Shown here piece after piece: positions 38,417-64,000 of a DNA stretch of 64,000 bases; the first letter of the stretch is position 1, and the number at the start of each line of letters is the position of its first letter. The DNA lies in NCBI GenBank assembly GCA_964438755.1, contig CAYTLL010000009.1:29518-93517 (forward strand). The letters run 5' to 3'. The stretch is from an uncultured Akkermansia sp. (lineage in GTDB: Bacteria; Verrucomicrobiota; Verrucomicrobiia; Opitutales; Opitutaceae). The position numbers and the translations under genes are program-made. A model generated the notes under the pieces. The model did not search any database. It was not told the origin of the DNA and saw only the letters and a list, made by a program, of their open reading frames with translations.

Positions 38417-38450
38417 GCCTGGATCGCTTGGCGGCCTGAAGCCGCTTCAA

Positions 38451-38479: not shown

Positions 38480-38512
38480 CGCGCCCGCTTTTTTCGTTTC
38501 GGGCTCGGCCGG

Positions 38513-39331: not shown

Positions 39332-39379
39332 GGGCAGGTTCGAAGCATGGCCGCGTCGTCGCGGTCCAAGGTCGGCGTC

Positions 39380-41878
39380 TTACTTGGCGCTTTCCACCGA
39401 CCACTCGTAGAGGCCGGCGGAGAAGTTGTCCGCGAGGTCGAGCTCGAGCTTCAGGGCGCGGGCGACGACCGGGGGGAACGTCACTTTCACGGGCTCGGAT
39501 TTGCGGATCGCGTAGGCGGAGACGCCGGGCACGGGCAGCCACTCGCCGGCCTCGTTCTTGTAGAGCAGGCGCCACGCCTTGGGCAGGCGGCACTCGCCCT
39601 GGCCCTCGTCGGAGAACCAGGAGACGGTCGCGCCGCTCACGCGCTCGGGCTTGGCGAACTCGTAGCTCAGCCACTCGGTGCCGCCCTTGTGCGGCCAGAA
39701 ATCGAAGTTGCGCGGGAAGCCGTCGGTGGCGTTTTGCGGCATCTGGCCGTCCTTGACCACGGCGGGGTCCATGCCGCCGCGGGCGAAGGAGACGCCGAGC
39801 TTGGCGGTGGAGGCGATCGTGGGCGGCAAGGGCAGGCGAACCTTGTCCGCCGAACGGGCGAGCCAGACGGCCATCGGCGAGAGGCCGCGGTTGTTCCAGG
39901 CGGCGTAGGGGATGGCTACGAGGCGCGCGGGCGTCTCGGCGAGCGAACCGTCCTCGCGGCGCGAGACGCGTTTCGCGCCGTCGACCTCGAGCGTGGTCAC
40001 GCCGCCGAGCAGCGCGGCCTGGTAAACGGGACGCGTGTCGGCGCCGGCGGGGAGCACGAGACCTTGCAGCGATCCGTCGTTGTCCAGGCCCTCGAAGGTG
40101 TAGACGACCGGGCCGCGCTCGAGCGCGACGAGGCCGGCGACGTCCTTGATCTTGGCGTGACCCGCCACGCGGCGGACGGGCATCGCGAGGTCGAGCTCCA
40201 CGCGGTCGCCTTCGCGCCACTCGCGGCGGACGACGGCGAAGCCGGACTCGAGCGCGGCGGACACGGGCTTGCCGTTGACCTTGAGCGTCCAGGCGGCGGG
40301 GGTCGCGTCCTCGTAGGTGTAGAGATCGCTCGGCACGGGCGCGCCGCGCGTCCAGCCGGGGATGCGCAGGCGCAGGGCGAAGGTGGCGGGCTTTTGCGGG
40401 TTCACCCCGAGGCGGATCGCGCCGTTCCACGGGTAGGCGGTCTCCTGCGTGAGGCGCAGCGTTTGCCCGCCGAGCTCGGCGCGGGCCTCGCCGGCGGCGT
40501 AGAGATTCACGAACAAATCCTGGTCGCGGACGGCGTAGGCGTAGCCGCCGAGCGAGGCGAGGACGCGGAGGACGTTGGGCGGGCAGCAGGCGCAGCCGAA
40601 CCAGGGGGCGCGGCCGGCGTGACCGTGGTTGTTCTTCGTCTTTCCGTCGTATTCGAGCGGGTTGGGGTAGAAGAACCGGTCGCCCGAGAGGGAGACGCCG
40701 CTGAGGAAGCCGTTGTAGAGCGTGCGCTCGAAGACATCCATGTATTTGGCGTCGCCGCTCATGAGGAACATGCGGTGGTTCCAGAAGAGGAAGCCGATGG
40801 CGGCGCAGGTCTCGTTGTAACAGCGGTTGGGTAGCTCGTAATCGTCGCCGTAGGCCTCGCCCGCGGCGCGGGCGCCCACGCCGCCGGTGAGGTGGAGCTT
40901 TTTGCCGACGACGTTGCCCCAGATCGCGTTGATCGCCTCGAGGTAACGCGGGTCGCCCTGGAGGGCGGCGACGTCGGCCATGCCGCTGTAGAGGTAGTTG
41001 GCGCGCACGGCGTGGCCGACGGCCTTGCGCTGATCGACCACGGGGGCGTGGTCCTGGCTGTATTCGCCGCCGCCGTGGCCGCGGGCCTCGAGGAAGAAGC
41101 GCGCGAGCGCGAGCCAGCGTTTGTCGCCGGTTTCCCGATACAGCTTGGCCAGGCCCATCTCGACGACCTCGTGGCCGGGGGCGATGCGCGGCTCGCCGTC
41201 GCCGAAGTCGCGTTGCAGGAGCTCGGCGGTCTTCAGGCAGATGTCGAGAAGGCTGCGGGAGCCGGTGGCCTGCTCGTGGGCGACGCCGGCCTCGTAGAGG
41301 TGGCCGAGGTTGTAGAGCTCGTGGCTGAGGCCCGGATCCTTTTCCCAGCGGTTTTGGCCGATCCACTCGTGCGCGGGCGAGTCGGGGTGCATCGTGCGCC
41401 AGGTGTAGAGATAGCCGTCGGGCTCCTGCGCGGCGGCGACGCGGGCGATGATCGTCTCGAGCTGGGCTTGCAGCTTGGGATCGGGGCGGACGCTGAGGCA
41501 GAAGGCGGCGCCTTCGAGGACCTTGTAGACGTCGGAATCGTCGAAGGGGTATTCGGTGACGGGCTTGTGCTGGGCGCCGGCCTCGCCGGCGGCGCGGCGC
41601 TTGAGGATGTCGGCCGCGAGGTCGAAATTTTGCAGACGCTTCGAGGTCTCGAGCTGGCCGAGGGCGAAGGGCAGGGTGACGCGGTTGTTGGTCTCCTGAC
41701 GGTCATGCCAGAGGCCCTCGGTGAAGCTCACCGCGGTGAAGGGGACGGGCTGGATCGGGTAGTCGGAGCCGGCGGCGAAGGCGGGCGCGGCGGCGAGGGC
41801 GCCGGCCATCGCGGACACGGCGTAGCAGCGCAGCCGGCCGGCGGCGCCGCGAGAGGGCGAAGGGGCGGAAGGGAACAT
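39380..41878 (-). CDS. Beta-L-arabinofuranosidase, GH127, with C-terminal discoidin/CBM-like domain
   Basis: DUF1680/GH127 blocks are YKVLEGAA, GYLYTW, HELYNLGHLYEAGVAH, the E-x-C motif NETCAAIGFLFWN, and the CC motif FGCACCPPNVLR. The C-terminal roughly 130 aa (TEWLSYEFAKPERVSGATVSWF...) are F5/8-like. I preferred the ATG at 41878 (MFPSAPS..., signal-like) over 41932, because the latter would overlap the divergent AraC gene. Confidence 0.9.
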   Translation of the reverse strand: MFPSAPSPSRGAAGRLRCYAVSAMAGALAAAPAFAAGSDYPIQPVPFTAVSFTEGLWHDRQETNNRVTLPFALGQLETSKRLQNFDLAADILKRRAAGEAGAQHKPVTEYPFDDSDVYKVLEGAAFCLSVRPDPKLQAQLETIIARVAAAQEPDGYLYTWRTMHPDSPAHEWIGQNRWEKDPGLSHELYNLGHLYEAGVAHEQATGSRSLLDICLKTAELLQRDFGDGEPRIAPGHEVVEMGLAKLYRETGDKRWLALARFFLEARGHGGGEYSQDHAPVVDQRKAVGHAVRANYLYSGMADVAALQGDPRYLEAINAIWGNVVGKKLHLTGGVGARAAGEAYGDDYELPNRCYNETCAAIGFLFWNHRMFLMSGDAKYMDVFERTLYNGFLSGVSLSGDRFFYPNPLEYDGKTKNNHGHAGRAPWFGCACCPPNVLRVLASLGGYAYAVRDQDLFVNLYAAGEARAELGGQTLRLTQETAYPWNGAIRLGVNPQKPATFALRLRIPGWTRGAPVPSDLYTYEDATPAAWTLKVNGKPVSAALESGFAVVRREWREGDRVELDLAMPVRRVAGHAKIKDVAGLVALERGPVVYTFEGLDNDGSLQGLVLPAGADTRPVYQAALLGGVTTLEVDGAKRVSRREDGSLAETPARLVAIPYAAWNNRGLSPMAVWLARSADKVRLPLPPTIASTAKLGVSFARGGMDPAVVKDGQMPQNATDGFPRNFDFWPHKGGTEWLSYEFAKPERVSGATVSWFSDEGQGECRLPKAWRLLYKNEAGEWLPVPGVSAYAIRKSEPVKVTFPPVVARALKLELDLADNFSAGLYEWSVESAK

Positions 41879-41926
41879 AGTCGCGAGCGTCGGCGCGGAC
41901 GTTTCTCCTTTCAAAAGGACATTGTC

Positions 41927-41937
41927 CGACAAAAAAG
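41927..41937. promoter_or_regulatory. Small palindrome GGACAtTGTCC in the GH127/AraC divergent promoter region
   Basis: Read directly from the sequence. It sits in the 76-bp AT-richer gap between the divergent starts at 41878 and 41955, and it contains the TTGTCCG half-site also seen at 26159-26177. Confidence 0.25.
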
Positions 41938-50162: not shown

Positions 50163-51404
50163 TCAGCTGGCTTTCGCGAGCGGGTAGAGGGCGGAGGCCG
50201 CCGCGCGAGGCGAGGGGGCGGGCCAGGGCGGCTTGCCGGCTCCGCGCCGGGTGTCGGGCTGCGCGGTCGCGACTTGTTCGCCGCCGGCTTCGGGCCGGGC
50301 GACAACGCGCGAAGGCGGCGCGGAAGCGGGGCGAGGGGCGGTCTTTCGCTCGTCGACGGGGAGGGATACTTTGACGGAAGGGGACGCGGGGCCTTCGCCG
50401 CCGGCGTTCATGGCGGTGACGACGCACTCGAGCGGGTGTTCGCAGGCGGAAAGGGGAAGGCTGAAGCGGGTGGTCTGAAGCGCCGAGGCGAGATCTTCGG
50501 GCGCGGCGCCGGGGCCGGTCACGCGCTTGAGGCGGTAGATCGCGCTGGAACAGGGGGCCTGCCAGGTGAAGACGACGTGGGCGCCGTCGATCGTCGCGGA
50601 AAATCCCTTGGGCGCGAGCGGGCGGGACGGCGGGGGCGGGGGCGTCAGGCGGAGCTCCGCGCCGCGGTAGTCGGCCTCGACGTCGGGGCGGGCGGGGCGG
50701 TGGAGGCCGACGCCGCGGCCCGGGCGCACGACCACGATGTCGAAGCGCCGGGAGAGGGCCGGGCCCGCGGGGCGTCCGGCGGGAGGGCGGATGCGAAGCG
50801 CGCCGGCGCGGTCGTCCCAGGAAAAGGAGACGGGACCGGCGGGATCCCGGAGCGTGAATTCGCCATCGGCGCCGGGGTAGACGCGTATTTCCAAGGGCGC
50901 GGCGGAGTCGCCGGCTTGTTCGGGGAGGCTGGCGAGGGGGATGATCGAGCCGGCTTTCACGAAGGCCGGGATGATTTCCAGCGGGACCGGGGTCTGGAGG
51001 GTGTCGCCGCCGGCGTAGGAGGCGCCCGACCAGAAATCGATCCATGCGGCGCCGGGGGGGAGCGCGAGGCGCAGCAGGTGGGTTTCGGCGGCGGGAGGGG
51101 GCTGCACCCAGAAGGCGGGGCCGAAGGTCAGGGCGTGAAGGTGTTCCCCCGAGCGCAGGTAGTCGTTGAGCGTGGCGGGGGCGCCGCGGGCGGCGGCGTC
51201 TTTTTTGGAAAGGGGAAGCGCCTCGTCGGTGGAGTCGACGTAGGGGGCGAGGCGACGGCGCAGACGGATGAAGTCGACCAGCACCTTCTGGGACGGGGCG
51301 GGACCGTTCCACGGCGTGTTTTCGCCCTCCGCGATGAGATGCATGCGGAAGCCCGGGGTGAAGACCTGGGATTGGAACCAACGGGTGAAAAGGGGCGAGG
51401 CCAT
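50163..51404 (-). pseudogene. 5'-truncated GH31 remnant (only the end of the barrel, the C-terminal beta-sandwich domains and an FN3-like tail)
   Basis: The ORF begins at LFTRWFQSQVFTPGFRMH...TPW, which corresponds to the late barrel segment of GH31 enzymes. It continues through FGPAFWVQP, IIPAFVKAGSIIP and LEIRVYPGADGEFTL (distal GH31 domains). Only 126 bp separate it from the upstream kinase stop, so the N-terminal and catalytic aspartate regions are absent. Confidence 0.55.
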
Positions 51405-51530: not shown

Positions 51531-53735
51531 CTAGCGGGTTCGGAGCGGCGCCCGCGGGGCGGGGATCTGGTCGCGGCGGTCGAGCATGCCGGCGGCTTCG
51601 CGCACGAGGATGCGGGCGTTGATCCAGTCGAACCAAAGGATCTGGGTGGCGGGTTCCCAGGGCTCGAGCGCGCTCCGGAAACGCTCGTCCAGGCGCGCGC
51701 GGTCTTCCTCGACCAGTCGCGCGGCCTCGTCGTGCCGGCCGAGCTGGGCGTAGGACATGGCCATGACCATGCGGGCGGAGATCTCGCGGGGGAGGTTGGG
51801 GTTTTGGTAGGACAGGCAGCGTTTGCTCCAGCGGATCGCGCCTTCGAGATCGCCGCGGCGCTGAGCGAGGAGGCCGAGCGCGAAGGAGCGCCACGCGTCG
51901 AGGTAAGGGTCGGCGCTGGCCTGGCGGTCGGCGCCCTCGAAGGTGGTGAGCACGACGTCCGCGAGGGGGGCGAGCGAGTCGAGAAACTCCGGGGGGGCCG
52001 GGGTCAGCAGGCTGGCTTTCAGGACCTGCTCGGCGGGCATCGGGTTGGTGGTGCGCGCGAAGCGGGCGACGGCGTTGCGTCGGAACGCGTCGTATTGAGC
52101 GTCGTCGCCGTTCTCGCAGATCGCGGAGGCGGCGGGCATGAGGCTGAAGGACACCTTGTCGGAGTCGGAGGGGTCGACGCGGGTGATGACGAGGGAGAGG
52201 GCGAAGTGGCGTTTGGCCGACTCGGCCCAACGGCCGCCGATGGCGTGCCATTCGCCGAGGGCGCGGAGCACCTGCGCGCATTCCAGCGAGGGGCGGAAGA
52301 GGCCGTCGTCGATCTGGGCGACGAGGGCGTCGGCCTCGGCGATCCGGCCGTAGGTCAGGAACACGGCGGCCTGCGCGATCTTTTCGCCGGCCTCCGCCTG
52401 GGCGAGGAGCCGGGTCTGCTCGCGGCGGGCGATGCGCTCGCGGTGGAGCAGCCAGGTCGAGAGGCCCAGGCCGGCGAGGAGCGTGACCAGGACGAGCGCG
52501 CCGGCGACGAAGACCACGCGGTTGCGCCGGACGAGCTTTTCAAAGCGGTAAAGGCGGCTGGGCGGGCGCGCGGCGACGAGCTCGTTCGCGAGATAACGGC
52601 GGATGTCCATCGCGAGGCCGTAGGCGGTCTCGTAGCGCCTGCGCCGGTCTTTTTCCAGCGCGGTGGCGATGATCCAGTCGAGGTCGCCGCGGACGGCGGC
52701 GATGAGGCGCGAGGGGTCGGCGCGCTGCTGCCGGGCGATCGCGAGAAGGTCTCCCGGCGGGAGGGCGGCGAGGACCGCGGAAGGGCGGGGGACCTCGCGT
52801 TCGCAGATGATGCGGCGCATGCTTTCCAGGCCGCCGGCCTCGAGTTCCTTGGAGTCGAAGGGGGTGCGGCCGGTGAGGAGTTCGTGCAGGAGCACGCCGA
52901 GGCTGTAGATGTCGCCGCGGGTATCGAGGTCGGGGTTGCCGAGATCGGCCTGCTCGGGGCTCATGTAGGCCGGCGTGCCGATGAGGTGCAGCTGGAAGGT
53001 GAGCCCGGGCTCGCCGTGGCGGCCCTCGACGGCCTTGGCGATGCCGAAGTCGATGATCTTCGGCATGGGCTGGCCGTCCTGCGTGGTGACAAGGATGTTG
53101 GACGGCTTGATGTCGCGGTGGATGATGCCCTTCTGGTGGGCGTGCTGGAGGGCGTGGCAGACGCGGATGAAGAGTCGCAGCCGCTCCTCGGTGGTGAGGA
53201 AATGTTGCGCGCAGTAGTCGGTGATTTTGATGCCGTGCACCAACTCCATCACGAAGTAGGGCCGCCCGGAGTCCGTCGTGCCGGCGTCGAGCACGCGGGC
53301 GATGTTCGGGTGGTCCATGATGGCGAGCGCCTGCCGCTCGCGCTCGAAACGCGTGATGACGCTCTCGGTGTCCATGCCGAGGCGGATGACCTTGAGCGCC
53401 ACCTGCCGGCGAACCGGTTCCTCCTGCTCGGCGAGGTAGACCACGCCGCAGCCGCCGGTGCCGAGTTTGCGGAGGATCTTGTAGCGCCCGATCTTCGCTA
53501 CGCCCCGTCCGCCGCGGTCGCCGGAATAGGATTCGAACTCGTCGGCGCTGCCGGTGGGCAGGGGGCTCAGGAGGGTCTCCGCCGGTTCCTGCAACGCGAG
53601 CAGTTCCTCGAGCCGCCGGCGCATCGTGGCGTCGTCCTGGCAGTGGTGGTCCAGGAAGGCGCGTCGCTCGGTCTCGCCGGCGAGCCCGACCAGTTCCTCG
53701 AAGAGGAGCCGTTCCCGTTTGCGCGCCTCGGTCAT
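51531..53735 (-). CDS. Membrane Ser/Thr protein kinase with extracytoplasmic helical-repeat (TPR-like) domain (module 2)
   Basis: Kinase motifs are LGTGGCGVVYLA, VALKVI, HRDIKPSNIL, IDFGIAK and GTPAYMSPE. The TM helix is VFVAGALVLVTLLAGLGLSTWLL. The C-terminal roughly 300 aa are collinear with the module 1 kinase and include the terminal WFDWIN. I set the start at MTEARK (ATG at 53735), which overlaps the sigma stop as ATGA. Confidence 0.9.
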   Translation of the reverse strand: MTEARKRERLLFEELVGLAGETERRAFLDHHCQDDATMRRRLEELLALQEPAETLLSPLPTGSADEFESYSGDRGGRGVAKIGRYKILRKLGTGGCGVVYLAEQEEPVRRQVALKVIRLGMDTESVITRFERERQALAIMDHPNIARVLDAGTTDSGRPYFVMELVHGIKITDYCAQHFLTTEERLRLFIRVCHALQHAHQKGIIHRDIKPSNILVTTQDGQPMPKIIDFGIAKAVEGRHGEPGLTFQLHLIGTPAYMSPEQADLGNPDLDTRGDIYSLGVLLHELLTGRTPFDSKELEAGGLESMRRIICEREVPRPSAVLAALPPGDLLAIARQQRADPSRLIAAVRGDLDWIIATALEKDRRRRYETAYGLAMDIRRYLANELVAARPPSRLYRFEKLVRRNRVVFVAGALVLVTLLAGLGLSTWLLHRERIARREQTRLLAQAEAGEKIAQAAVFLTYGRIAEADALVAQIDDGLFRPSLECAQVLRALGEWHAIGGRWAESAKRHFALSLVITRVDPSDSDKVSFSLMPAASAICENGDDAQYDAFRRNAVARFARTTNPMPAEQVLKASLLTPAPPEFLDSLAPLADVVLTTFEGADRQASADPYLDAWRSFALGLLAQRRGDLEGAIRWSKRCLSYQNPNLPREISARMVMAMSYAQLGRHDEAARLVEEDRARLDERFRSALEPWEPATQILWFDWINARILVREAAGMLDRRDQIPAPRAPLRTR

Positions 53736-54331
53736 TTGCGCGGTGGCGTCGCGCCCTTTTCGGGCGGATTCGCGCCCGGATCCTGGCGGACGAGCCGGTA
53801 AAGGGAGGCGCGGGCGTAGGCCCACTGGCGATTGAGGGTGCGTTCGCTGACGCCGAGGATTTCGGCGATCTCCTCGTTGGTGAAGCCGCCGAAGAACTTG
53901 TAGGTCACGAGACGCGCGCTCTCGGGGTCCTCGGCCTCGAGCCGGGTGAGGGCTTCGTTGACCAGAAGCACCCGCTCGTCGGGCTGCGGGCTGCTGAGAT
54001 TAAGGTCGGCGATGTCGACCGGCTCCATCATGCGGCCGCGTTTGCGCGTGGCCTTTTTGCGCGCGAGGTCGACGAGGATGTGGCGCATCGCCAGGGCGGC
54101 GGCGCGAAAGAAGTGCTGGCGATCGTTCCAGTTGCGCTCGCCTTGGTGGGCGAGGCGAAGCCAGGCCTCGTGGACGAGGGCGGTGGGTTGCAGGGTGACG
54201 GGCCCGTCCTCGCGTCGCAGGCGCCGGGCGGCGAGCCGGCGCAATTCGTCGTAAACGAGCGGCAGCAACTTTTCCGGAGCTCCGGGATCCCCTTGTTCCG
54301 CGGCGCGCAGGAGTTGGGTGATCTCGCTCAT
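53732..54331 (-). CDS. ECF sigma factor, TIGR02999 / Sigma70_ECF type (module 2)
   Basis: The N-terminus is MSEITQLLRAAEQGDPGAPEKLLPLVYDELRRLAARRLRREDGPVTLQPTALVHEAWLRL. Region 4 is FFGGFTNEEIAEILGVSERTLNRQWAYARASL. Confidence 0.9.
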   Translation of the reverse strand: MSEITQLLRAAEQGDPGAPEKLLPLVYDELRRLAARRLRREDGPVTLQPTALVHEAWLRLAHQGERNWNDRQHFFRAAALAMRHILVDLARKKATRKRGRMMEPVDIADLNLSSPQPDERVLLVNEALTRLEAEDPESARLVTYKFFGGFTNEEIAEILGVSERTLNRQWAYARASLYRLVRQDPGANPPEKGATPPRK

Positions 54332-54574
54332 GAAGGGGTTCGCGGAAGGTGGGGTGTCGGGCTGCGCGGGGCAAACGCGGTGGAGGAATGAGCGCCCGCG
54401 TCGGGAGGCGACAATTCCATTTTATCGGTTTTGAGGGGTGATTTCTTCTCCGCTTGGGGCGTGGTGGCGAATCTTTACGGTAAATACCCATTTTGCTTGT
54501 CGGGCGAGGAAGCCGTTTGCCGCGAGTTAAGGACGTCTTCAGGGTGCGTGGTCGTTTTCTAATCACCCCACCCC

Positions 54575-57500
54575 ATGTTCCGGCGCCCCTTCCTCGTCCG
54601 CGCGGCTTCGCTTTGCGTAGTCGCCTGCCTTCCCTCCGCAAACGCCGCCCTGACCCAGCGTTGGTCCTTCAATTCCGCTTCCGGCTCGGCCGCGAACGGG
54701 ACCGCGCTCTCCGACTCGGTGGGCGGCATGACGGCGACGGTCCGCGGCGTGGGCGCCACGTTCAACGGTTCCGCCCTCGTCCTGCCCGGCACGACCACGG
54801 GCAACGTCACCCCGGCGACCATCTCCGCCTACCTGGACCTCCCCAACGGCGTCCTTTCGAGCCGGGAAAACGTCTCCATCGAGCTCTGGGTCACGCCCGT
54901 GGCCTCGCTCAATTTCCAGCGGATCTTCGATTTCGGCGCCTCCAGCGCCGGCGACGGCCTCGGCGCCGCGGGCGAGTGGACCGGCGGCGGCACGGTCGCC
55001 CCCAACAACGTCACCGCCTCCGACGAGTTCGGCCTCACCACCAACGTCGGGACGAACATCAACACCCAGCGCTTGTATGGCCGCCTCAACTACGACCAGG
55101 CCGGCGCGCTCAATCTCTACGCGGACAGCGCGCTGACCACCACGCTCGGCCAGCGCTACCACTACGTCGTCACCTACGCCAAGGGCGTCGGCGCTTACGC
55201 CGCGACCGGCGGCGGCCAGCAGAAATGGTATCGCGACGGCGCCCTCGTCGCCACGTTGGACCTGCCCTACGCGCTTTCGACGATCAACGACGTCAACAAC
55301 TGGATCGGCCGCTCCCAGTTCTCCGCCGACCCGCTCTCGCGCATCAACATCGACGAGCTCCGGCTCTACGACCACGCCCTCGGCGCGACGGAGGTCTCCG
55401 CCAATCGCGACGGCGGCCCCGACCAGATCGTCACGCCTCCCGCGCCGGTTCCCGCGCCGACGCCCAACCACCTCTGGACGTTCAACGTCCAGGCCGATTC
55501 CACCGTCGATTCCGGGCTCGTCTTCACCGATTCCGTCGGCGGCATGGCCGCCACCGTGCGCGGCAACGGGGCCACGCTCACCGGCACCGCGCTTCGCCTC
55601 CCGGGCACGACCGACGGCAACCAGACCGCCGCCTCGATCTCCGCCTATCTCGACCTGCCGAACGGCATCATCTCCGCGCGCTCCGCCATCACCTTCGAGG
55701 CCTGGGCCACCCCGCGCTCGTCCAAGAACTGGCAGCGCCTCTTCGACTTCGGCCGCTGCGCGACCACGTCGGGCGCCGGCGCGGCGACGGGCGAGATCGT
55801 CGACGGCCCCGCCATCCCCGGGGCCACCGCCGGCTACGACAACCTCGGCCTCACCCTTAACACCGGCACCAACCTCAACAGCCAGCAGCTCGAGGGCCAA
55901 TACGACGGCAACGCTCCTGTCTACTCCAGCACCACCGCCGCCACCACGGCCGGCACCGAGTATCACTACGTTTTCGTCATCGAGGACGGCGTCGGCACCT
56001 ACGGCGCCACCGGTTGCCGCGCCCGCTGGTATCGCAACGGCGTCCTCCAGAACTCCATGGATTTCGCCTTCCTCTCGGGCGACATGGAGGATGTGAACAA
56101 CTGGATCGGCCGCTCGCTGTATACCGGTGACTCCAACTCCAACTTGGATCTGAACGAGCTGCGGATCTACAACCGCGCCATCACGCCCGCCGAGGTCCTC
56201 GCCAGCTACACCGCCGGCGCCGATCCGGCCTCGGGACCGCCCGAACCGCTCCCTCCCGCCCCGCTCCCGGTCAATCGCTGGTCGTTTGACAACGCCTCCG
56301 GCGCCGCCGCTTCCGGCACCGCGCTCGTCGACAGTTCCGGTCGCGAGACGCTCACCGTCCGCGGCGTCGGCGCGACGTTCAACGGTTCGTCCGTCGTCCT
56401 TCCCGGCACCACCAACGGCAACCAGACCGCCGCCGCCATCTCCGCCTACCTCGACCTCCGCAACGGTTTCGTGTCGTCCCGCTCCAGCCTCACCTTCGAG
56501 GCCTGGGTCACGCCGGTCTCCTCGAAGAACTGGCAGCGCCTCTTCGATTTCGGCAACTGCTCGATCACCAGCGGCACCGGTGCGGCCGCGGGCGAGATCG
56601 TCGACGGCGCCGCCGCCCCCGGGGGCTTTGTCGCCAACGACAACCTCTTCCTCTCCCTGAACGTCGGCACCGTTCTCGGCAGCCACCGTCTCGCCGCCAA
56701 GGTCGACGGCGGCACCGAGACCGGCCTCAACACCGACCTCTCCTCCATCACCGTCGCCGGCACCGAATACCACTACGTCCTCACCGTGGAGGACGGCGCG
56801 GGCGTCTACGGCGCCGCCGGCTGCCGTGTCCGCTGGTTCCGCAACGGCGAGCAGCAGGGCTCCGCCGATCTTTCCTATCGCCTCGCCGACCTCAGCGACG
56901 CGAACAACTGGATCGGCCGCTCCAACTGGGCCGCCGACAACAACTCCAACCTCTCGCTCAACGAGCTCCGCGTCTATGATCGCGCCATCTCGCCCGCCGA
57001 GGTGATCAGTAGCTACCAGGCCGGCCCGTCCGTCGTTTTCCCCGCGCCCACGCTCGTCGCCGACTCCGCGACCATCCAGCCGGGGCAAAAGGTCCTGCTC
57101 GACGTCCTCGCCAACGATTCCGGCGGCCCCATCCCGGCCTCCCTGCAAATCGTGTCTCCGCCCCAGGCCGGCACGGCCGTGATCCGCGACGGCAAGATCC
57201 TCTACTCCCACGCCGGCTCCGCCCCCGGACCCGTCACCTTCACCTACCGCGTCGCCAACGTCAGCGGCGCCAGCGCCGACGCTGTCGTGACCATCCGGCT
57301 CGCCGCCGGGCTTCGCATCGACAACCCGGCCATCGCCATGCCCGCCTCGCCGCCGCCGACCTTCTACCAGACGGTCGACGCCATCCCCGGCGTCAGCTTC
57401 AGCGAACCCGTCGCCATCGCCACGCAGCCCGGCGACACCCGCCGCGTCTACGTCTGCGAGCGCATGGCCAAGATCCAGCTCGTCCCCGACATCACCGCCG

Positions 57501-59968
57501 CCGCGCCGGCCAAGCAGCTCTTCCTCGATCTCGCGCAGGTCGTCGCCGGCCGCACCCCCGCCGAGACCCTGGTCAACGGCGCCAACTACGAGTTCGGCCT
57601 CCTCGGCCTCGCCTTCCACCCCCAGTATTCGAGCAACGGATACTTCTTTGTCGCCTACTCCGTGCAGATCAACGGCGTCGTCTACGAGCGCATCTCGCGT
57701 TTCAAGGTCGCCTCGGCCAACCCCGACGCCGCCGACCCCGCCTCGGAGCTCGTGCTTCTCCAACAGCTCGACGAGGGCGCCAACCACAACGGCGGCGACC
57801 TCCATTTCGGTGCGGACGGCTACCTCTACTACGCCGCCGGCGACGAGGAGAACCCGAACGACTTCCGCGCCAACAGCCAGCGTCTCGACAAGGATTTCTT
57901 CGCCGGAATCTTCCGCCTCGATGTGGACAAGCGCCCGGGCAACCTCGAGCCCACCGCGCACGCCGCCATCCCCACCGACAACGGCGTCGCCCGCTTCTCC
58001 GTGCCCGTCGACAATCCCTTCGTCCCCGTCGCGCGCGGCGGCGCCTGGGACGGCACCTTCACCGGCCTCGCGGTCACCGACATGACCAAGCTGCGCATGG
58101 AATACTGGGCGGTCGGACTCCGCCACGCCTGGCGCTTCTCCTTCGATTCGCTCACCGGCGATCTCTGGGCGGGCGACGTGGGCCAGAACACCTACGAGGA
58201 GATCAACCGCGTCGTGAAGGGCGGCAACTACGGCTGGGTCTGGCGCGAGGGTTTCACCGACACGACCTTCGCCACCAATCCGACCAAGCCCGCCAACTTC
58301 ACCTCGATCGATCCGGTCTGGGCCTACCCGCATACCTCCGTCGCCGGCGCCGATCCCCAGTTTGCCGGCAACTCGGTCGTGGGCGGCGTGGTTTATCGCG
58401 GCGCCCGTTTCCCCGCCCTCTACGGCCAGTATGTCTTCTGCGACTCCGTTTCCGGCCACATTTGGAAACTCGATCCCGCGACCAAGGCCGTCTCGCGTCT
58501 CACCGGCGTGCCCGGCGTCTACGGCGGCCTCGTCAGCATGGGCGTCGATCCCTCCAACCAGGACCTGCTCTTCGCCGACTACCTGAACAGCCGTATCATC
58601 CGCCTCGTCACCGGCACCTCGACGAGCAGCTTCCCCGCGACCCTGGGCGCCACCGGCCTTTTCGCCGATCTCGCCGACCTCTCGCCCAGCCCGGGTTTGG
58701 TTCCTTATCAGGTCAATCTGCCCTTCTGGAGCGACCACGCCGTCAAACGCCGCTGGTTCGGCATCCCGGGCGCGGCCAAGGTCTCGCCCCAGCGCGACGC
58801 CAACTGGAGCTATCCCTCCGGACTGGTTCTGGTGAAGCATTTCGACCTCGATCTCACCCGCGGTGATTCCTCCACCCGCCGTCGCATCGAGACGCGCGTC
58901 CTCGTGAAGAACGACGCCGGCTTCTACGGCGTGAGCTACCGTTGGAACGACGCGCAGACCGACGCCACGCTCGTGCCCGACGAAGGCGTCGAGTTCGACC
59001 TCGCGATCAACGACGGCGGCGTCCTTCGCACCCAGCGTTGGGGCATTCCCAGCCGCTCTAGTTGCCTCACCTGCCATACGCCGCAGGCCGGCGGCGCGCT
59101 TTCCTTCAACACCCGCCAGCTCAATCGCGACGGTTCGATTCACGGATATCTCGGCAACCAGCTCGCGACGTTGGAGAACGCCGGCTACTTCTCCACCTCC
59201 CTCGGCGACCCCGTCGCGCTGCCCCGCCATGTGCGACCCGACGAGACGCTCTACTCCGTCGAGGCGCGCGCCCGTTCCTACCTCGCGGTCAACTGCTCCT
59301 ATTGCCATCGCGCCGACGGCACGGTCGCCGGCGCCTTCTGGGATGGCCGCGCCCATCTGAGCCTGACGCAGACCAATCTGATCAACGGTCCCGCGCTCAA
59401 CAACGGGGGCAGCGCCGCCAACCGCCTCGTGGTGCCGGGCGATCTCTCGCACTCGATCGTCTACAACCGCGTCGCCGTCCAAAACGGCTTCACCCGCATG
59501 CCGCCGCTGGGCAGCACCGAGCTCGACCAGACGGCCATCGCGCTCCTGACGGAGTGGATCTCCGCGCTCGGCGCCCGCGCCGACTACCCCGCCTGGCGCC
59601 TTGCCACCTTCGGAAGCGCATCCTCCGCGAACGGCGCCGAAAACGCCGACCCCGACGGCGACGGCCAGGACAACCTCTCGGAGTTCATCTCCTTCACCGA
59701 TCCCCTGGATCCTTCCAGCGCATTGCGCACCACGATCTCGGGCGCCGGCGTCGGCGAAAGCGCCACGATCACCGTGTCCTTCGTGTTGCCGCCCGACCGC
59801 GCCTGGGCGCTGGAGACCTCCACCGATCTGGCCAACTGGGCCCCGTGGACTCCCGCCGGCGCCGATGGCGTGCCGCGCGCCAGCGCCACCACGATCTCGC
59901 TCAGCTCCGCCGCGCCTGACGCCGTCACCGCCCGCCGCTTCTTCCGTCTGCGCCTCTCCGTGCCCTGA
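54575..59968 (+). CDS. Giant secreted protein: 3x LamG + cadherin/Ig-like + PQQ-dependent sugar dehydrogenase-like beta-propeller + region with two CxxCH haem-c motifs + C-terminal module
   Basis: The signal peptide is MFRRPFLVRAASLCVVACLPSANA. The three LamG repeats carry NFQRIFDFG, NWQRLFDFGRC and NWQRLFDFGNC, each ending in (D/N)ELR(L/I/V)Y(D/N). The sGDH-type motifs are GLLGLAFHPQY, NHNGGDLHFGADGYLYYAAGD and GLRHAWRFSFDSLTGDLWAGDVGQNTYEEINRVVKGGNYGW. CLTCH lies at 59063-59077 and CSYCH at 59294-59308. Confidence 0.85.
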   Translation: MFRRPFLVRAASLCVVACLPSANAALTQRWSFNSASGSAANGTALSDSVGGMTATVRGVGATFNGSALVLPGTTTGNVTPATISAYLDLPNGVLSSRENVSIELWVTPVASLNFQRIFDFGASSAGDGLGAAGEWTGGGTVAPNNVTASDEFGLTTNVGTNINTQRLYGRLNYDQAGALNLYADSALTTTLGQRYHYVVTYAKGVGAYAATGGGQQKWYRDGALVATLDLPYALSTINDVNNWIGRSQFSADPLSRINIDELRLYDHALGATEVSANRDGGPDQIVTPPAPVPAPTPNHLWTFNVQADSTVDSGLVFTDSVGGMAATVRGNGATLTGTALRLPGTTDGNQTAASISAYLDLPNGIISARSAITFEAWATPRSSKNWQRLFDFGRCATTSGAGAATGEIVDGPAIPGATAGYDNLGLTLNTGTNLNSQQLEGQYDGNAPVYSSTTAATTAGTEYHYVFVIEDGVGTYGATGCRARWYRNGVLQNSMDFAFLSGDMEDVNNWIGRSLYTGDSNSNLDLNELRIYNRAITPAEVLASYTAGADPASGPPEPLPPAPLPVNRWSFDNASGAAASGTALVDSSGRETLTVRGVGATFNGSSVVLPGTTNGNQTAAAISAYLDLRNGFVSSRSSLTFEAWVTPVSSKNWQRLFDFGNCSITSGTGAAAGEIVDGAAAPGGFVANDNLFLSLNVGTVLGSHRLAAKVDGGTETGLNTDLSSITVAGTEYHYVLTVEDGAGVYGAAGCRVRWFRNGEQQGSADLSYRLADLSDANNWIGRSNWAADNNSNLSLNELRVYDRAISPAEVISSYQAGPSVVFPAPTLVADSATIQPGQKVLLDVLANDSGGPIPASLQIVSPPQAGTAVIRDGKILYSHAGSAPGPVTFTYRVANVSGASADAVVTIRLAAGLRIDNPAIAMPASPPPTFYQTVDAIPGVSFSEPVAIATQPGDTRRVYVCERMAKIQLVPDITAAAPAKQLFLDLAQVVAGRTPAETLVNGANYEFGLLGLAFHPQYSSNGYFFVAYSVQINGVVYERISRFKVASANPDAADPASELVLLQQLDEGANHNGGDLHFGADGYLYYAAGDEENPNDFRANSQRLDKDFFAGIFRLDVDKRPGNLEPTAHAAIPTDNGVARFSVPVDNPFVPVARGGAWDGTFTGLAVTDMTKLRMEYWAVGLRHAWRFSFDSLTGDLWAGDVGQNTYEEINRVVKGGNYGWVWREGFTDTTFATNPTKPANFTSIDPVWAYPHTSVAGADPQFAGNSVVGGVVYRGARFPALYGQYVFCDSVSGHIWKLDPATKAVSRLTGVPGVYGGLVSMGVDPSNQDLLFADYLNSRIIRLVTGTSTSSFPATLGATGLFADLADLSPSPGLVPYQVNLPFWSDHAVKRRWFGIPGAAKVSPQRDANWSYPSGLVLVKHFDLDLTRGDSSTRRRIETRVLVKNDAGFYGVSYRWNDAQTDATLVPDEGVEFDLAINDGGVLRTQRWGIPSRSSCLTCHTPQAGGALSFNTRQLNRDGSIHGYLGNQLATLENAGYFSTSLGDPVALPRHVRPDETLYSVEARARSYLAVNCSYCHRADGTVAGAFWDGRAHLSLTQTNLINGPALNNGGSAANRLVVPGDLSHSIVYNRVAVQNGFTRMPPLGSTELDQTAIALLTEWISALGARADYPAWRLATFGSASSANGAENADPDGDGQDNLSEFISFTDPLDPSSALRTTISGAGVGESATITVSFVLPPDRAWALETSTDLANWAPWTPAGADGVPRASATTISLSSAAPDAVTARRFFRLRLSVP

Positions 59969-60644
59969 GCGCGAGGTCGGCGATCTTTTGGGGCAAGGTC
60001 TTGGCGCTTGAACGCCTTGGCCTTGCCTCGAGCAAAGAACGCTCCGGCTTGTTTCCGCGGGAGGGCAGGGGCGTGGCGGTCGAGTGCGTTCTCGCGCCGC
60101 CGCAGGGAAAAGAAGCTGCCTGAAATGAGCGGACGTCGCTTTCCCGGCTGGATGTTAAGTCAACGAAGGAGCTTATAGGCCAAGGGCTTCGATTTCTCTT
60201 TGTTGCGCTTGGGATTGTCCTGCCCGCCTCCGTTCGGCGCGCCGATGAGCAGACTGATCTATTTGTGAAACCGAGACTAAGCGATTTTCGCCGCGGATTG
60301 GCGTCGGAGGCGACGAGTGACGCCGGGGTGATCGTTCGTTTCGGTGCTCGGCCGCGTCGCGACAGGAAATTCGTTTCGGCCGTTTTGGAGTTTTTCCTCA
60401 TTCGGTCGCGTGTTGCCTGCCCTTTTGGCCGCGCAACTTTATTTCCCGCAATGTCATCCGTGTTCGATCTCCCGGGATGCTCATGCGGAAGTGGGCGCCG
60501 CCCGCGATTTTAGATTCGTGGAAAAATAATCCGAACTTCTTGGCGCAAGTCGCCGCGCTTTCTCGTTCCTATCTGTTCAAGCCCCTCTCGCGCCCGCGTG
60601 GACACCCCTCTCCGCGCCACCCCCTTTTTGTTGTTATCCAGACC

Positions 60645-63600
60645 ATGAAACCTACCCCCCTAAGTCATCCGAATCGTATCGGGGCCTCTCGCCGCAAAGG
60701 CTTGAGCGCCCGATCGCAAAAGGCCTCCGCCACGCTCGGCGGTTCGCTCCTGGCGCTCTTGGCGCTGGCCTCGTCCGCGCACGCCGCGGTGGCCACCTGG
60801 GACGCCGGAGCCGGCACCCAAGATTGGAATACCGCCGCCAACTGGAGCGGTGATGTGTTCCCGACCGGCGCGTGGCCCGATGGCGTCGCCACCATCAACA
60901 CCGGAACCGGACTTTATCCGATCGTCAGCGCCGACTCGGCCTTCACGCCTTCGGACATCATCATCGGCACGGGAGCCGGTCAAACCGGCCGTCTGGACGT
61001 GACCGCGGGCACCGCTCGCACCGGCACCGGCAATTGGCTGATTCTGGGCGCCAACGGCGGCACCGGCAGCCTCAATGTTTCCGGCGGTAGTTTTAACGTC
61101 CAGGATCTCCACATCGGCCGCACCGCCAACTCCGGCACCGGCACCGTGACGGTGAGCGGCACCGGCGTGATCAACGCCGCGGGCGCCGTGGTGCTCGGCG
61201 ATGGCGACAGCGGCGACGACTCCGCGGTCGGCACGCTCAACGTGGACGCCGGCGGCACGGTCAACTCCGAGGGCGACCTTCTTCTCGCGTTCGCCGGAGC
61301 CAGCACCACCACCGGCACGGTCAACATCGCCGCGGGCGGCACGATCAACGTGGCCACCACCGTGAAGCGTTGGCTGATCATGAACATGTGGGATGGCACG
61401 AGCGGCACCCTGAACGTCAGCGGCGCCCTCAACCTAAACGCCAACACGGACATCCAGTTCAGCACCGGCTCCTGGGGACCCGGCGCCTCCAACGGCCCCA
61501 GCACGATCAACCTGAACGCGGGTTCGATCACCATGGGCGCCGGCTCGGTCGTTAACCTGAACAACAACGCCGATCGCGCGGTCGCCAACACGCTCAACCT
61601 CAACGGTGGCGTTCTCACCGCCGCCTCGATCGTGAGCGGCAAGGCCACCGGCGCCCGCGTCATCAACTTCAATGGCGGCACCCTGAAGGCCGCCGTCGAC
61701 AGCGCCACCTTCATCGGCGCCACCGCGGCCAGCGCGGCCAACGTGAAGGCCGGCGGCGCGATCATCGACACCAGCGGCTTCAACGTCACCATCGCCAAGG
61801 CGCTCACCGCCGACGCCACCTCGACCGGCGGCGGCCTCTCCAAGCTCGGTGGCGGCACCCTGACCCTCTCCGGGGTCAACACCTACACCGGCAACACCAC
61901 GGTGAACGCCGGCACCTTGGCCCTCTCCGACAACGCTTCGCTGAAGTTCGTCATCGGCGCCAACGGCGTGAATAACAAGATCACCGGAGGCGGCACCCTG
62001 ACCGTGGACGGCGACTTCGACTTCGATCTGACCGCCGCCGGCACCGCTTCCGGCAACTCCTGGCAGGTCGTGGACATCTCCACGCTGACCGAGACCTTCG
62101 GCTCGACCTTCACCGTCACCGGCTTCACCGCCAGCGGCGCCAAGTGGGTCAAGCCCGCCAACGGCACCTTCTACGAGTTCGACTCCGCCACCGGCGTCCT
62201 TCGCGTGATCGCCGATCCCGGCATCTCCTATCCCACGCCCACCGCCTCGGCCGGTTCTTACAACACGTCCTACCCGGTCGGCTCCGACATCGTCCTGAGC
62301 GTCTCCGCCAGCGGTCTCGGCGACCTCACCTACCAGTGGTATAAGGACGGCAGCCCGATCTCCGGCGCCACCGGCTCCACGCTGACCATCTCCGGCGTCA
62401 CGAACGCCAACGACGGCGTGTATTCGGTCGTCGTGACCGACCATGCCGCCGAGGCCTCCGGCCAGACGGCCAAGACCAGCACCGTCACCTTCTCGACGAT
62501 CTCGGTCCTCCCCGGCAGCAGCTTCGCCGTCGCCTACTATCGATTTGAAGAGGGCACCAACGGCGGCGCCGTCAGCTCCGCGACCGACTCGGCCGGCACC
62601 AACAACCTCACCGCCGTGGGCGCGACGACCTACACCTCGGCCAGCGTTCCCTACACCACCATTCCGGCGACCGGAGCGAGCAACGCCCTCGGCGCCAACT
62701 TCCCCGCCTCCGGCAGCAATGGTCTCGTGGCCCCCACCAGCGGCACCCTCGCCGACGCGGCCTTCACCGACTTCACCGTCGAGGCCTTCGTCCGTCTCAG
62801 TAGCCTGAGCGGCTGGCAGACCATCGTCGGTCGCGACGACACCGGCAACCCCGGCACCGGCGCCGGCGCCACCGCCCTGTTCTACCTCTCGAAGGCCGGC
62901 GCCGCCGTCGGTTCGGGCGCGAACAACGGCTTCCGCATCGAGCTCATCACCAAGGATAATGTGAGCCTCCAGGTGAACAGCACCTTCGTGCCGGTCATCG
63001 GCACCTGGTATCACGTGGCCGCGGTCGGCAACTCCTCCAACGGCACCCTCAAGCTCTACGTGAACGGCGCCGAGGTCGGTTCCACCAGCGGCTTCACCGG
63101 CCTGATGGCCCCCGCCTCGGGCGCCGACGCCCCCTGGACCATCGGTCGCGGCGACTACGGCGCGGCCGACGTCGACTTCTTCCGTGGCGACGTCGACGAG
63201 GTGCGCTTCTCGCGCGCCGCGCTCCCGGCCAGCCAGTTCCTCAACACCGCCAATGGCCTCGTGGTCGTGAATCCGACCCTGTCGCTCTCTCCGTCGGCCC
63301 AGACGATCGCCACCGGCGGTTCGACCACGCTGACGGCCACCGGCAGCTCGAACATGAGCGGCACGGTGAGCTACCAGTGGTATAAGGACGGCTCTCCGAT
63401 CTCCGGCCAGACCGGCTCGACCCTGAGCGTCAACGACTCCGGCTCCTACTCTGTCGTGGCCACGGACTCCAACAGCACCGCGGCCGGCTTCGCGATCGCC
63501 GCCACCGCGAATTCGGTGATCCGCGTCATCAGCCTCCCGGCCGCGGGCGCCCGCGCCATCGGTCTGAACTTCGTCGGCTCCAGCACCGGCGGCAACTACT

Positions 63601-64000
63601 CGACCGCCCTCGGCCCCATCGCCTCGGGCGTCTCCGCCGGCTTCTACGCCACGAGCAACTGGAACAACTCCGCGACGACCAATTACGTCGCCACCCAGGC
63701 TACCCCGCTCGCTCTTGCCGAGAACAACGGCTCGACCACGTTCGGCGCGTCCGCGACCTGGGCCTCGGCCAACACCTGGTCCGCGCGCAGCGCCACCGGC
63801 GATATCGCCACGGATCCGGCGGTGAAGACCTCCGACGCGATGCTCCTGCACGGCTACATCGAGTCGCGCGCCGCGACCGGCGCCACCGTGACCGTATCCA
63901 ACATCCCCTACGGAAGCTACGACGTCTATGTCTACGTCGCCGGCGGCGGCAGCGCCAACGTGGGCTCGGTCAGCCTCGACCGCGCGGGTTCTCCGACCTA
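60645..64000 (+). CDS. Large secreted PATR-repeat protein with Ig-like / LamG / Ig-like region (3' end beyond the window)
   Basis: I translated this by hand from the ATG at 60645 and found no in-frame stop through 64000, which is why it is absent from the ORF track. The N-terminus is MKPTPLSHPNRIGASRRKGLSARSQKASATLGGSLLALLALASSAHA. Beta-helix-like G/T/N-rich repeats follow. A PATR motif (SKLGGGTLTLSGVNTYTGNTTVNAGTLALS), two Ig-like modules (YQWYKDGSPISG) and a LamG-like module (DFTVEAFVRLSSLSGWQTIVGRDD...LKLYVNGAEV...GDVDEVRFS) are present. The long minus-strand ORFs here are antisense artefacts. Confidence 0.8.
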   Translation, partial: MKPTPLSHPNRIGASRRKGLSARSQKASATLGGSLLALLALASSAHAAVATWDAGAGTQDWNTAANWSGDVFPTGAWPDGVATINTGTGLYPIVSADSAFTPSDIIIGTGAGQTGRLDVTAGTARTGTGNWLILGANGGTGSLNVSGGSFNVQDLHIGRTANSGTGTVTVSGTGVINAAGAVVLGDGDSGDDSAVGTLNVDAGGTVNSEGDLLLAFAGASTTTGTVNIAAGGTINVATTVKRWLIMNMWDGTSGTLNVSGALNLNANTDIQFSTGSWGPGASNGPSTINLNAGSITMGAGSVVNLNNNADRAVANTLNLNGGVLTAASIVSGKATGARVINFNGGTLKAAVDSATFIGATAASAANVKAGGAIIDTSGFNVTIAKALTADATSTGGGLSKLGGGTLTLSGVNTYTGNTTVNAGTLALSDNASLKFVIGANGVNNKITGGGTLTVDGDFDFDLTAAGTASGNSWQVVDISTLTETFGSTFTVTGFTASGAKWVKPANGTFYEFDSATGVLRVIADPGISYPTPTASAGSYNTSYPVGSDIVLSVSASGLGDLTYQWYKDGSPISGATGSTLTISGVTNANDGVYSVVVTDHAAEASGQTAKTSTVTFSTISVLPGSSFAVAYYRFEEGTNGGAVSSATDSAGTNNLTAVGATTYTSASVPYTTIPATGASNALGANFPASGSNGLVAPTSGTLADAAFTDFTVEAFVRLSSLSGWQTIVGRDDTGNPGTGAGATALFYLSKAGAAVGSGANNGFRIELITKDNVSLQVNSTFVPVIGTWYHVAAVGNSSNGTLKLYVNGAEVGSTSGFTGLMAPASGADAPWTIGRGDYGAADVDFFRGDVDEVRFSRAALPASQFLNTANGLVVVNPTLSLSPSAQTIATGGSTTLTATGSSNMSGTVSYQWYKDGSPISGQTGSTLSVNDSGSYSVVATDSNSTAAGFAIAATANSVIRVISLPAAGARAIGLNFVGSSTGGNYSTALGPIASGVSAGFYATSNWNNSATTNYVATQATPLALAENNGSTTFGASATWASANTWSARSATGDIATDPAVKTSDAMLLHGYIESRAATGATVTVSNIPYGSYDVYVYVAGGGSANVGSVSLDRAGSPT

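Follow-up and report, generated by a model that had tools for sequence, protein, structure and literature searches.

The stretch considered here is a segment of contig CAYTLL010000009.1 from an uncultured Akkermansia sp., 64,000 nucleotides long and referred to in its entirety as the window. Near its right-hand end lies an open reading frame (ORF 54575–59968) that encodes a protein of 1797 amino acids (aa). This protein is a real secreted fusion of sugar-binding modules, a propeller resembling those of glucose/sorbosone dehydrogenases (GSDH), and a two-haem cytochrome. From the N-terminus, the order is signal peptide, three LamG repeats, a Big_9 domain, a six-bladed GSDH-type β-propeller, a dihaem region and a C-terminal module. 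A Pfam scan recovers three Laminin_G_3 stretches, Big_9 and GSDH (E 4e-22), together with weak matches to class-I cytochrome c. The frame is intact, and its GC content at third codon positions (0.91) is typical of real genes in the window, which has 68.9% GC; no fewer than ten further assemblies of Verrucomicrobia contain orthologues of full length, at 61–90% identity. The CxxCH motifs and the other features are not chance occurrences, because both motifs are invariant in 90 out of 90 homologous copies. The individual features of the gene are as follows.

54575–59968, plus strand: whole gene, 1797 aa plus stop (from the list of open reading frames)
54575–54646, plus strand: type-I (Sec) signal peptide, aa 1–24, predicted cleavage after ANA (read from the sequence; kept in orthologues)
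54647–55423, plus strand: LamG (Laminin_G_3) repeat 1, aa 25–283 (Pfam PF13385, three stretches, E 4.8e-37)
55466–56230, plus strand: LamG repeat 2, aa 298–552 (Pfam PF13385; repeat comparison)
56273–57019, plus strand: LamG repeat 3, aa 567–815 (Pfam PF13385; repeat comparison)
57044–57295, plus strand: Big_9 bacterial Ig-like domain, aa 824–907 (Pfam PF17963, E 1.5e-11; present in most homologues)
57365–58612, plus strand: six-bladed GSDH/HHIP-type β-propeller, aa 931–1346 (Pfam GSDH, E 4e-22; AlphaFold; Foldseek; hhalign)
57785–57844, plus strand: NHNGG...GD motif with His1071 and Asp1090, equivalent to His144 and Asp163 of soluble glucose dehydrogenase (sGDH) (alignment to five solved enzymes dependent on pyrroloquinoline quinone, PQQ)
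58121–58135, plus strand: Arg1183-His1184-Ala-Trp1186-Arg1187, with Arg1183 equivalent to sGDH Arg228, His1184 at the position of Asn229, and Trp1186 replacing Gln231
58448–58534, plus strand: expected place of the PQQ-carboxylate clamp, with Val1292 (sGDH Lys377), Gly1318 (Arg406) and Val1320 (Arg408) (MAFFT; strands agree with the model)
58634–59569, plus strand: SO2930/TIGR03806-like dihaem cytochrome c region, aa 1354–1665 (NCBIfam TIGR03806)
58838–58840, plus strand: His1422 in a KHF motif, candidate for distal ligation of haem 1 (present in all 90 copies and in the 27 diverse representatives)
59063–59077, plus strand: haem 1 attachment motif CLTCH, aa 1497–1501 (invariant, 90/90)
59294–59308, plus strand: haem 2 attachment motif CSYCH, aa 1574–1578 (invariant, 90/90)
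59498–59500, plus strand: Met1642 within RMPP, probably the axial Met ligand of haem 2 (invariant, 90/90)
59591–59965, plus strand: C-terminal module, aa 1673–1797 (DPDGDG...FFRLR; in the family consensus, and also ending ORF 26288–31162)

Much of this layout had been recognised in an initial annotation made from the letters of the sequence. Its domain order and coordinates (signal peptide, three LamG repeats, propeller, two CxxCH motifs and a shared C-terminal module) agree with Pfam, NCBIfam and the structural model, and one domain, Big_9, had been overlooked. The motifs GLLGLAFHP (57596–57622), GL.H.WRFSFD...NYGW (58115–58237) and CxxCH had been placed correctly; the second motif is really NHNGGDLHFGADGYLYYAAGD, so that the pattern given there lacks one residue between its LY and its GD. 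Secretion, likewise proposed there, is borne out by conservation of the type-I signal peptide. Orthologue N-termini share AxA followed by (A/S/D)L..RWSF, which in the present protein reads ALTQRWSF. A lipoprotein was considered on account of a lipobox-like VVAC (aa 15–18); this is unlikely because the Cys is not kept among orthologues. The three LamG repeats are 46–58% identical to one another in pairwise comparisons. The 125-residue C-terminal module matched no Pfam family, and a promoter and terminator scan of 54250–60500 gave nothing above chance.

The propeller belongs to the GSDH superfamily. An AlphaFold model of aa 920–1670 (predicted local distance difference test score, pLDDT, 87.9; predicted template modelling score, pTM, 0.72) delimits it at aa 931–1346. 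It scores 79 bits against Pfam GSDH (PF07995), for which the cut-off is 25, and only 51 bits against TIGR03606, where the cut-off is 434. A Foldseek search of the PDB with the propeller model returned HHIP (E 5e-21), sGDH (about 1e-18) and PQQ dehydrogenases of the Asd type (1e-15 to 1e-17; template modelling (TM) scores on the target of 0.76–0.82), the target TM-scores of all three groups together spanning 0.61–0.82. Sequence-based searches of the same database give HHIP as the top match with phmmer (8e-18), and a family profile reaches 3.8e-33 for HHIP and 1e-18 to 3e-9 for the PQQ enzymes. The HHIP alignment is limited to blades 1–2 and part of blade 5. The block of blades 3–4, GLRNPWRFSFD...DVGQ..EE.N...GGNYGW, aligns with sGDH and Asd, not with HHIP; hhalign pairs the propeller with sGDH at 99.1% probability, over blades 1–4 only. 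The initial annotation had likened the propeller to fungal pyranose dehydrogenases of family AA12. This comparison did not survive: the Foldseek match to AA12 (6i1q, E 4e-9, 11% identity) ranks far below those to HHIP, sGDH and Asd, and no AA12 chain appeared when the PDB was searched with the propeller by sequence or profile. It is on the Foldseek rank and these searches that AA12 membership was rejected.

In sGDH, the active site may be thought of as two halves, one catalytic and one that grips the cofactor. To compare them, the family was aligned by MAFFT with five solved PQQ enzymes (sGDH; Asd, which is E. coli YliI; 7cdy; 2ism; 3a9g). The sGDH sequence used is identical to 1C9U chain A, that of YliI was taken from the E. 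coli genome and the other three came from printed alignments; residue conservation was counted on 90 copies from species-representative genomes. For blades 5–6, which hhalign does not cover, the mapping is based on MAFFT, the SPDG..LY/DPSN.D.L motif and the strand pattern of the model. The alignment retains the catalytic half, namely the equivalents of His144, Asp163, Arg228 and Asn229. His1071 is kept in 89/90 copies, and Asp1090 and Arg1183 in all 90; position 1184, at sGDH Asn229, is His in 41 copies (including the present protein), Asn in 39 and Ser in 10. Glu1006, which corresponds to sGDH Gln76 and is Glu in 2ISM and 3A9G, is found in 88/90. Gly1203, the Ca-binding backbone position Gly247 of sGDH, is invariant (90/90), and the following position, Pro248 in sGDH, is Gln or Gly in the family; in sGDH the active-site Ca is bound by the main-chain carbonyls of these two residues, a type of contact that is not visible in sequence. 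Trp1186, too, is present in 90/90 copies. A quinone of the tryptophan or cysteine tryptophylquinone type, made from this Trp with help from the dihaem domain, was considered and dropped, as more distant family members carry Phe or His there.

The region that follows the propeller matches TIGR03806, the 'SO2930 family diheme c-type cytochrome', over model positions 2–314 of 314 (E 1e-62, 212 bits), in keeping with the SO2930/HNE_0200-like family that the initial annotation had named for a profile scan; together with the Pfam GSDH match and the invariant CxxCH motifs, this supports the proposed pairing of a GSDH-type propeller with a dihaem cytochrome c of this kind. The score stays below the curated TIGR03806 cut-off of 313 bits. 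Because stand-alone Verrucomicrobial relatives of the dihaem region also fall under this cut-off (161–222 bits), the Verrucomicrobial module is regarded as a sister clade of the curated family. The founding proteobacterial members of TIGR03806 are paired with a parallel β-helix protein (TIGR03805), not with a propeller. TIGR03806 itself has no known function; for SO2930, one network-analysis paper that mentions it was found, and no other.

An AlphaFold model of aa 1354–1670 is very confident (pLDDT 91.5, pTM 0.87). It consists of a β-sandwich up to the first CxxCH and, after it, a mainly helical, class-I-like haem 2 part containing the second CxxCH. Foldseek gave no significant PDB match to this model, the top hit being cytochrome P460 (E 0.26), and the module may thus represent an unsolved haem-protein fold. 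With the family profile, the haem 2 part weakly matches the dihaem iron oxidase FoxE (E 3.9e-4), and its NGF..MP motif can be lined up with the p-cresol methylhydroxylase cytochrome c subunit, at an E-value that is not significant. CLTCH and CSYCH are invariant in sets of 43, 27 and 90 sequences, in line with the expectation, expressed in the initial annotation, that both would be conserved in orthologues. From the conserved residues, haem 2 is probably His/Met-ligated through Met1642, and haem 1 may be bis-His-ligated through His1422. Such a combination would suit a relay from low to high potential.

The fusion, of which the initial annotation knew no characterised case in Verrucomicrobia, is neither rare nor confined to its island. 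The segment comprising propeller and dihaem region (aa 920–1670) has more than 7300 database matches at E ≤ 1e-10. The best 120 of these cover 74–100% of the segment (nearly all 98–100%) at 52–86% identity, and most have lengths near 1230 aa and contain a single LamG along with Big_9, GSDH and the cytochrome. Named matches come from Luteolibacter, Haloferula and other Verrucomicrobiota, and are called 'PQQ-dependent sugar dehydrogenase' by NCBI (an automatic name) or 'TIGR03806 family' by JGI. In species-representative genomes, at least 531 stretches encode relatives, with homologues in other genomic contexts; the best 80 loci are nearly all from Verrucomicrobiota, some genomes contributing more than one. 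Tandem paralogues occur at 10 of 85 loci. Loci L003 (394–13639) and L004 (295–13645) have three copies each, one three-LamG protein of about 1770 aa and two of about 1215 aa, adjoining rhamnose-catabolism genes (rhaA, rhaT, a kinase and a GH78 glycoside hydrolase); a further locus, L005, has two tandem copies.

When the dihaem domain alone served as query, 7214 cluster representatives (50% identity) were retrieved, 2393 of them at E ≤ 1e-30. Among 27 architecturally diverse representatives, 19 also contain the GSDH propeller; the other domains vary (LamG, Big_9, cadherin, PKD, fn3, MBG, DUF642, PA14), and one representative adds a haem region like CCP_MauG/RoxA. The dihaem module is found on its own as well, in proteins of about 450–480 aa, and in further architectures. 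Since propeller and dihaem region are shared by 19/27 diverse representatives while the remaining domains change, the two together form the conserved unit, around which accessory domains vary freely. The 1797-aa protein is an ordinary member of this family with two extra LamG repeats rather than a unique invention. A relative of 2729 aa (P0122) combines the propeller–SO2930 core with CCP_MauG-like and RoxA-like haem c regions and two further CxxCH motifs, making it an even bigger member of the family with more haems.

Taken as a whole, the protein is best read as a Sec-exported, glycan-tethered extracytoplasmic oxidoreductase with an internal two-haem wire, whatever the cofactor of its propeller; a probability of about one half is assigned to this reading. 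Starting from the architecture, fold, conservation pattern and family distribution described above, its catalysis, substrate, direction of electron flow, haem ligation and location beyond the cytoplasmic membrane might be envisaged as follows. The three LamG modules and Big_9 would tether the protein to a glycan or keep it at a distance from the cell. The top face of the propeller would oxidise a sugar or glycan-derived substrate, using His1071 and Asp1090 as a general-base dyad and Arg1183 together with Asn/His1184 as polarising residues. Electrons would then pass to haem 1 (at CLTCH; His1422 would probably make it bis-His) and on to haem 2 (at CSYCH; His/Met, through Met1642), and the final acceptor would be external, for instance a periplasmic cytochrome or oxidase.

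Several observations point in this direction. By structure and by profile, the modelled propeller matches PQQ sugar dehydrogenases. The putative catalytic residues His1071, Asp1090, Arg1183 and Glu1006 are kept in 88–90 of 90 copies, the CxxCH motifs, Met1642 and His1422 in every one, and the predicted signal peptide is conserved. Propeller and dihaem region stay together, the island in which the gene lies is glycan-degrading, and L003 and L004 have rhamnose-catabolism neighbours. Transfer of electrons from a PQQ propeller to a cytochrome has been proposed for related bacterial enzymes (2026 preprint). Overall, the protein seems to work most like a quinohaemoprotein dehydrogenase, and is homologous to the propellers of sGDH/Asd and HHIP and to the SO2930-type cytochromes.

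The comparison with characterised systems is instructive. The propeller has its six-bladed fold in common with sGDH/GdhB (1C9U), Asd/YliI (2G8S), 3A9G/3A9H, 2ISM, 3DAS and 7CDY (all PF07995), and shares with sGDH/Asd the elements GLLG.AFHP, His144, Asp163, Arg228, Asn229 (Asn, His or Ser here), Gly247, DEIN and GGNYGW. Unlike these enzymes, it contains a large insert that separates blade 2 from blade 3, and it shares its chain with a dihaem cytochrome c, LamG in three copies, Big_9 and the C-terminal module; it also lacks equivalents of Arg406, Arg408 and Lys377, and has Trp in place of Gln231 and Val in place of Gln/His246. With the HHIP propeller (2WFX, 3HO3, 7PGM), it shares GLLSLAFHPNY, H.GG.L.FGPDG.LY, RLDVD and GG.VYRG....LYG.YVF.D; HHIP is a vertebrate signalling receptor without cofactor or haem, unlike the haem-fused propeller protein. 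HHIP-like (HHIPL/HIPL) proteins share the RNPWR and NYGW..EG motifs.

AA12 enzymes (CcPDH, 6JWF; the T. reesei enzyme, 6I1Q) follow an analogous logic, in that a cytochrome, a six-bladed propeller and a carbohydrate-binding module are combined in a secreted, polysaccharide-linked protein. The cytochrome of CcPDH is, however, an N-terminal b-type AA8 domain, whereas the 1797-aa protein has a C-terminal dihaem c. AA12 also binds PQQ through a residue set of its own, which in CcPDH comprises Arg273, His363, Arg430, Asn431, His539, His560, Trp563/Asn564 and Arg621, and so includes three arginines. The type II quinohaemoprotein alcohol dehydrogenases offer a functional analogy, as propeller dehydrogenases with a C-terminal, electron-accepting cytochrome c. 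These are eight-bladed members of an unrelated sequence family with a single haem and a proven dependence on PQQ/Ca or PQQ/lanthanide. Large secreted proteins of Teredinibacter turnerae and Cellvibrio (Cbp2D) (PMC10916295) likewise unite carbohydrate modules, a propeller annotated as PQQ-dependent and c-type haem domains; their propeller family (pf08450/SGL plus X173) and haem domains (X183/X132) differ from those described here.

A number of findings weigh against an active oxidoreductase of this kind, and the most serious concern the half of the sGDH site that holds the cofactor. Arg occupies the Arg406 and Arg408 columns in all five solved enzymes, and neither Arg nor Lys is found there in any of the 90 family copies: the Arg406 position is Gly, Val or a gap, and the Arg408 position Ser, Val, Ala or Thr. 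The Lys/Arg377 position is Val, Gly or similar, and in every copy Gln231 is replaced by Trp1186 and Gln/His246 by Val1202. HHIP, a non-enzyme, is the closest solved relative of the propeller by sequence; as it also keeps the H.GG...GD motif, conservation of this motif is no proof of catalysis. In T. turnerae, a propeller of another family that is fused to c-type cytochromes and was likewise taken for a PQQ dehydrogenase proved inactive and failed to bind PQQ (PMC10916295); it is a caution, not a homologue. The literature on SO2930/TIGR03806, six-bladed quinohaemoproteins and Verrucomicrobial PQQ dehydrogenases yielded no characterised member. Within the 64-kb window, no lytic polysaccharide monooxygenase (LPMO), cytochrome, oxidase or other electron acceptor or partner is encoded, and the gene contexts of distant homologues differ (rhamnose catabolism, aldose epimerase, glycosyltransferases, unrelated genes). 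Because these contexts differ between genomes, gene neighbourhood was discarded as a clue to the substrate.

According to the CcPDH structure paper, arginines that pair with the PQQ carboxylates are common to sGDH, Asd and AA12, and Lys377 of sGDH binds the C-7 carboxylate. Judged by the alignment, the propeller thus keeps the half-site for proton and hydride abstraction and has lost the half that grips the three carboxylates of the cofactor. Arg1187 (82/90), Arg1224 (80/90) or the residue at position 1295 (His, Asn or Arg) might compensate. Since the canonical tri-basic clamp is absent, any PQQ must be bound by a novel mode, unless a different cofactor takes its place; PQQ dependence is therefore unproven and, if real, non-canonical. 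The initial annotation had assumed PQQ and had named loss of its ligands as a finding that would speak against this. Such loss has half occurred: the catalytic half (His/Asp/Arg/Asn) is kept, and Arg406, Arg408, Lys377, Gln231 and Gln246 lack equivalents throughout the family.

A canonical PQQ/Ca pyranose dehydrogenase of the sGDH or AA12 kind, the model of the initial annotation, oxidising released sugars of the L-arabinose/L-fucose type while its cytochrome feeds oxidative polysaccharide cleavage, would account for the above-threshold GSDH match, the retained catalytic His, Asp, Arg and Asn/His, the invariant Gly1203, an architecture analogous to CcPDH, the location in an arabinofuranosidase island and the NCBI name 'PQQ-dependent sugar dehydrogenase' given to homologues. 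It is nevertheless unlikely, as the equivalents of Arg406, Arg408 and Lys377 are lost and Gln231 and Gln246 have become Trp and Val in every copy, AA12 is structurally distant (E 4e-9 versus 1e-15 to 5e-21 for sGDH, Asd and HHIP), and more distant family members do not keep the association with arabinan genes. The role of electron donor to an oxidative step, suggested initially, finds no LPMO or other oxidative partner encoded in the window. In a 2026 survey, moreover, a complete PQQ residue set was present in only 483 of 2,290 six-bladed propellers. Loss of the clamp would instead be expected of a non-catalytic, HHIP-like binding or scaffold propeller, with the chemistry residing wholly in the dihaem module and LamG, Big_9 and the propeller placing it on glycans; the module might then shuttle electrons, catalyse peroxidase-like reactions or act on a metal as an oxidoreductase (cf. 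FoxE). The rank of HHIP as best PDB sequence match, 15 orders of magnitude ahead of the PQQ enzymes with the family profile, fits such a scaffold, as do the occurrence of the dihaem module alone and in other architectures, the weak FoxE likeness of the haem 2 subdomain and the T. turnerae case, in which a propeller linked to cytochromes lacks PQQ. This alternative is possible but doubtful, given that Arg1183, Asn/His1184, His1071, Asp1090 and Glu1006 are kept together, that blades 3–4 align with Asd/sGDH and not HHIP, that strong constraint acts on the invariant residues of the pocket across the 90 copies, and that co-occurrence of propeller and dihaem region in 19/27 diverse representatives suggests functional coupling.

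Least probable, and indeed very unlikely, is a surface adhesin or structural protein without redox function, in which the haems would be purely structural, or a decaying paralogue. Accessory domains that recall adhesins (LamG, Ig-like, and the C-terminal module that a giant protein nearby also carries), the tandem paralogue arrays and a conserved giant PATR/Ig neighbour could be read in this sense; the haem-binding and propeller pocket residues are, however, invariant across 90 copies from many species, the frame is intact and the orthologues are of full length. A bolder variant of the extracytoplasmic oxidoreductase reading can be offered tentatively, with the odds against it: the thousands of Verrucomicrobial proteins built like this one and named 'PQQ-dependent sugar dehydrogenase' may make no use of PQQ and instead constitute a new class of extracytoplasmic haem-propeller oxidoreductases. 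In these, an HHIP-like propeller with only the His/Asp/Arg half-site would use another cofactor, or act directly on its substrate, and be wired to the dihaem module, for whose fold there is no solved counterpart. If so, the obligatory cytochrome fusion would hint, by a Rosetta-stone argument, at a redox role of HHIP-like propellers elsewhere.

The surroundings of the gene bear out the arabinoglycan island described in the initial annotation. Arabinose-directed glycosidases in the window comprise two GH127, two GH51-like and two GH43 enzymes and one GH27; an astacin protease, an AraC regulator and several giant Ricin/LamG/F5_F8 proteins are encoded as well. The two GH127 β-L-arabinofuranosidases and GH51-like enzymes lie at 35900–41932 and 10300–14820, and the astacin metalloprotease at 38513–39331. 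Because GH127 and GH51-like enzymes occur together with this protease, the island's target is suggested to be arabinosylated glycoproteins (extensin, arabinogalactan-protein) rather than plain arabinan. No pqq genes are present within the 64-kb window. Features outside the gene that relate to it are the following.

30791–31159, plus strand: further copy of the C-terminal module, closing the 1624-aa LamG/F5_F8/Ricin protein of ORF 26288–31162 (tblastn, 34% identity, E 8e-11)
51531–54331, minus strand: sigma factor of the extracytoplasmic function (ECF) type (53732–54331; Sigma70_ECF, 1e-52) and Ser/Thr kinase (51531–53825; Pkinase, 2e-45), divergent and upstream
60321–63998, plus strand: giant LamG/Ig/PATR (autotransporter-repeat) protein, directly downstream and open at the window end (Pfam)

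Synteny between the ECF sigma/kinase pair and the propeller gene is kept in the three closest relatives (L007, L008, L024). A second pair of ECF sigma factor (PF07638) and Ser/Thr kinase is found at 19373–22750 on the minus strand, and both pairs flank blocks of secreted, glycan-active genes. The giant LamG/Ig/PATR gene is kept downstream of the orthologue in L007, L008, L009 and L077, at 57–68% identity, and its product is a possible functional partner. Also upstream, a 413-aa ORF (50163–51404, minus strand) matches only the end of a GH31 TIM-barrel and the GH31 C-terminal domain; since L024 has a counterpart at 61% identity, this N-terminally short GH31-like protein is probably encoded by a real gene. 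The sole other obvious redox enzyme in the window is an FAD-linked oxidase of 1018 aa (6981–10037, plus strand) that includes a 4Fe-4S dicluster domain and resembles GlcD/D-lactate dehydrogenase; it adjoins a thioredoxin-fold AhpC/TSA protein (6003–6596) and has no apparent link to the propeller gene.

The general idea of PQQ propellers in clusters of carbohydrate-active enzymes is not new; a 2026 preprint proposes six-bladed examples in such clusters, arabinan and arabinogalactan loci among them, and mentions haem domains in some. No member of the present propeller–dihaem family appears to have been studied experimentally. The family is very large and mis- or under-annotated, and the 1797-aa protein is one representative of it, not a singular find. 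If its propeller binds no PQQ, the annotation carried by thousands of proteins would be wrong, and there would be a new cofactor or mechanism to find. The dihaem module belongs to a large family of 7214 cluster representatives and, although confidently modelled, matches no fold in the PDB, so that a first structure and a redox characterisation would be informative. Biosensor engineers have had to build cytochrome fusions of sGDH artificially; an active core here would mean that a six-bladed propeller dehydrogenase with its own two-haem wire exists in nature. Verrucomicrobiota are abundant and poorly studied degraders of polysaccharides, and an active core would add an oxidative, respiration-linked step to their use of glycans.

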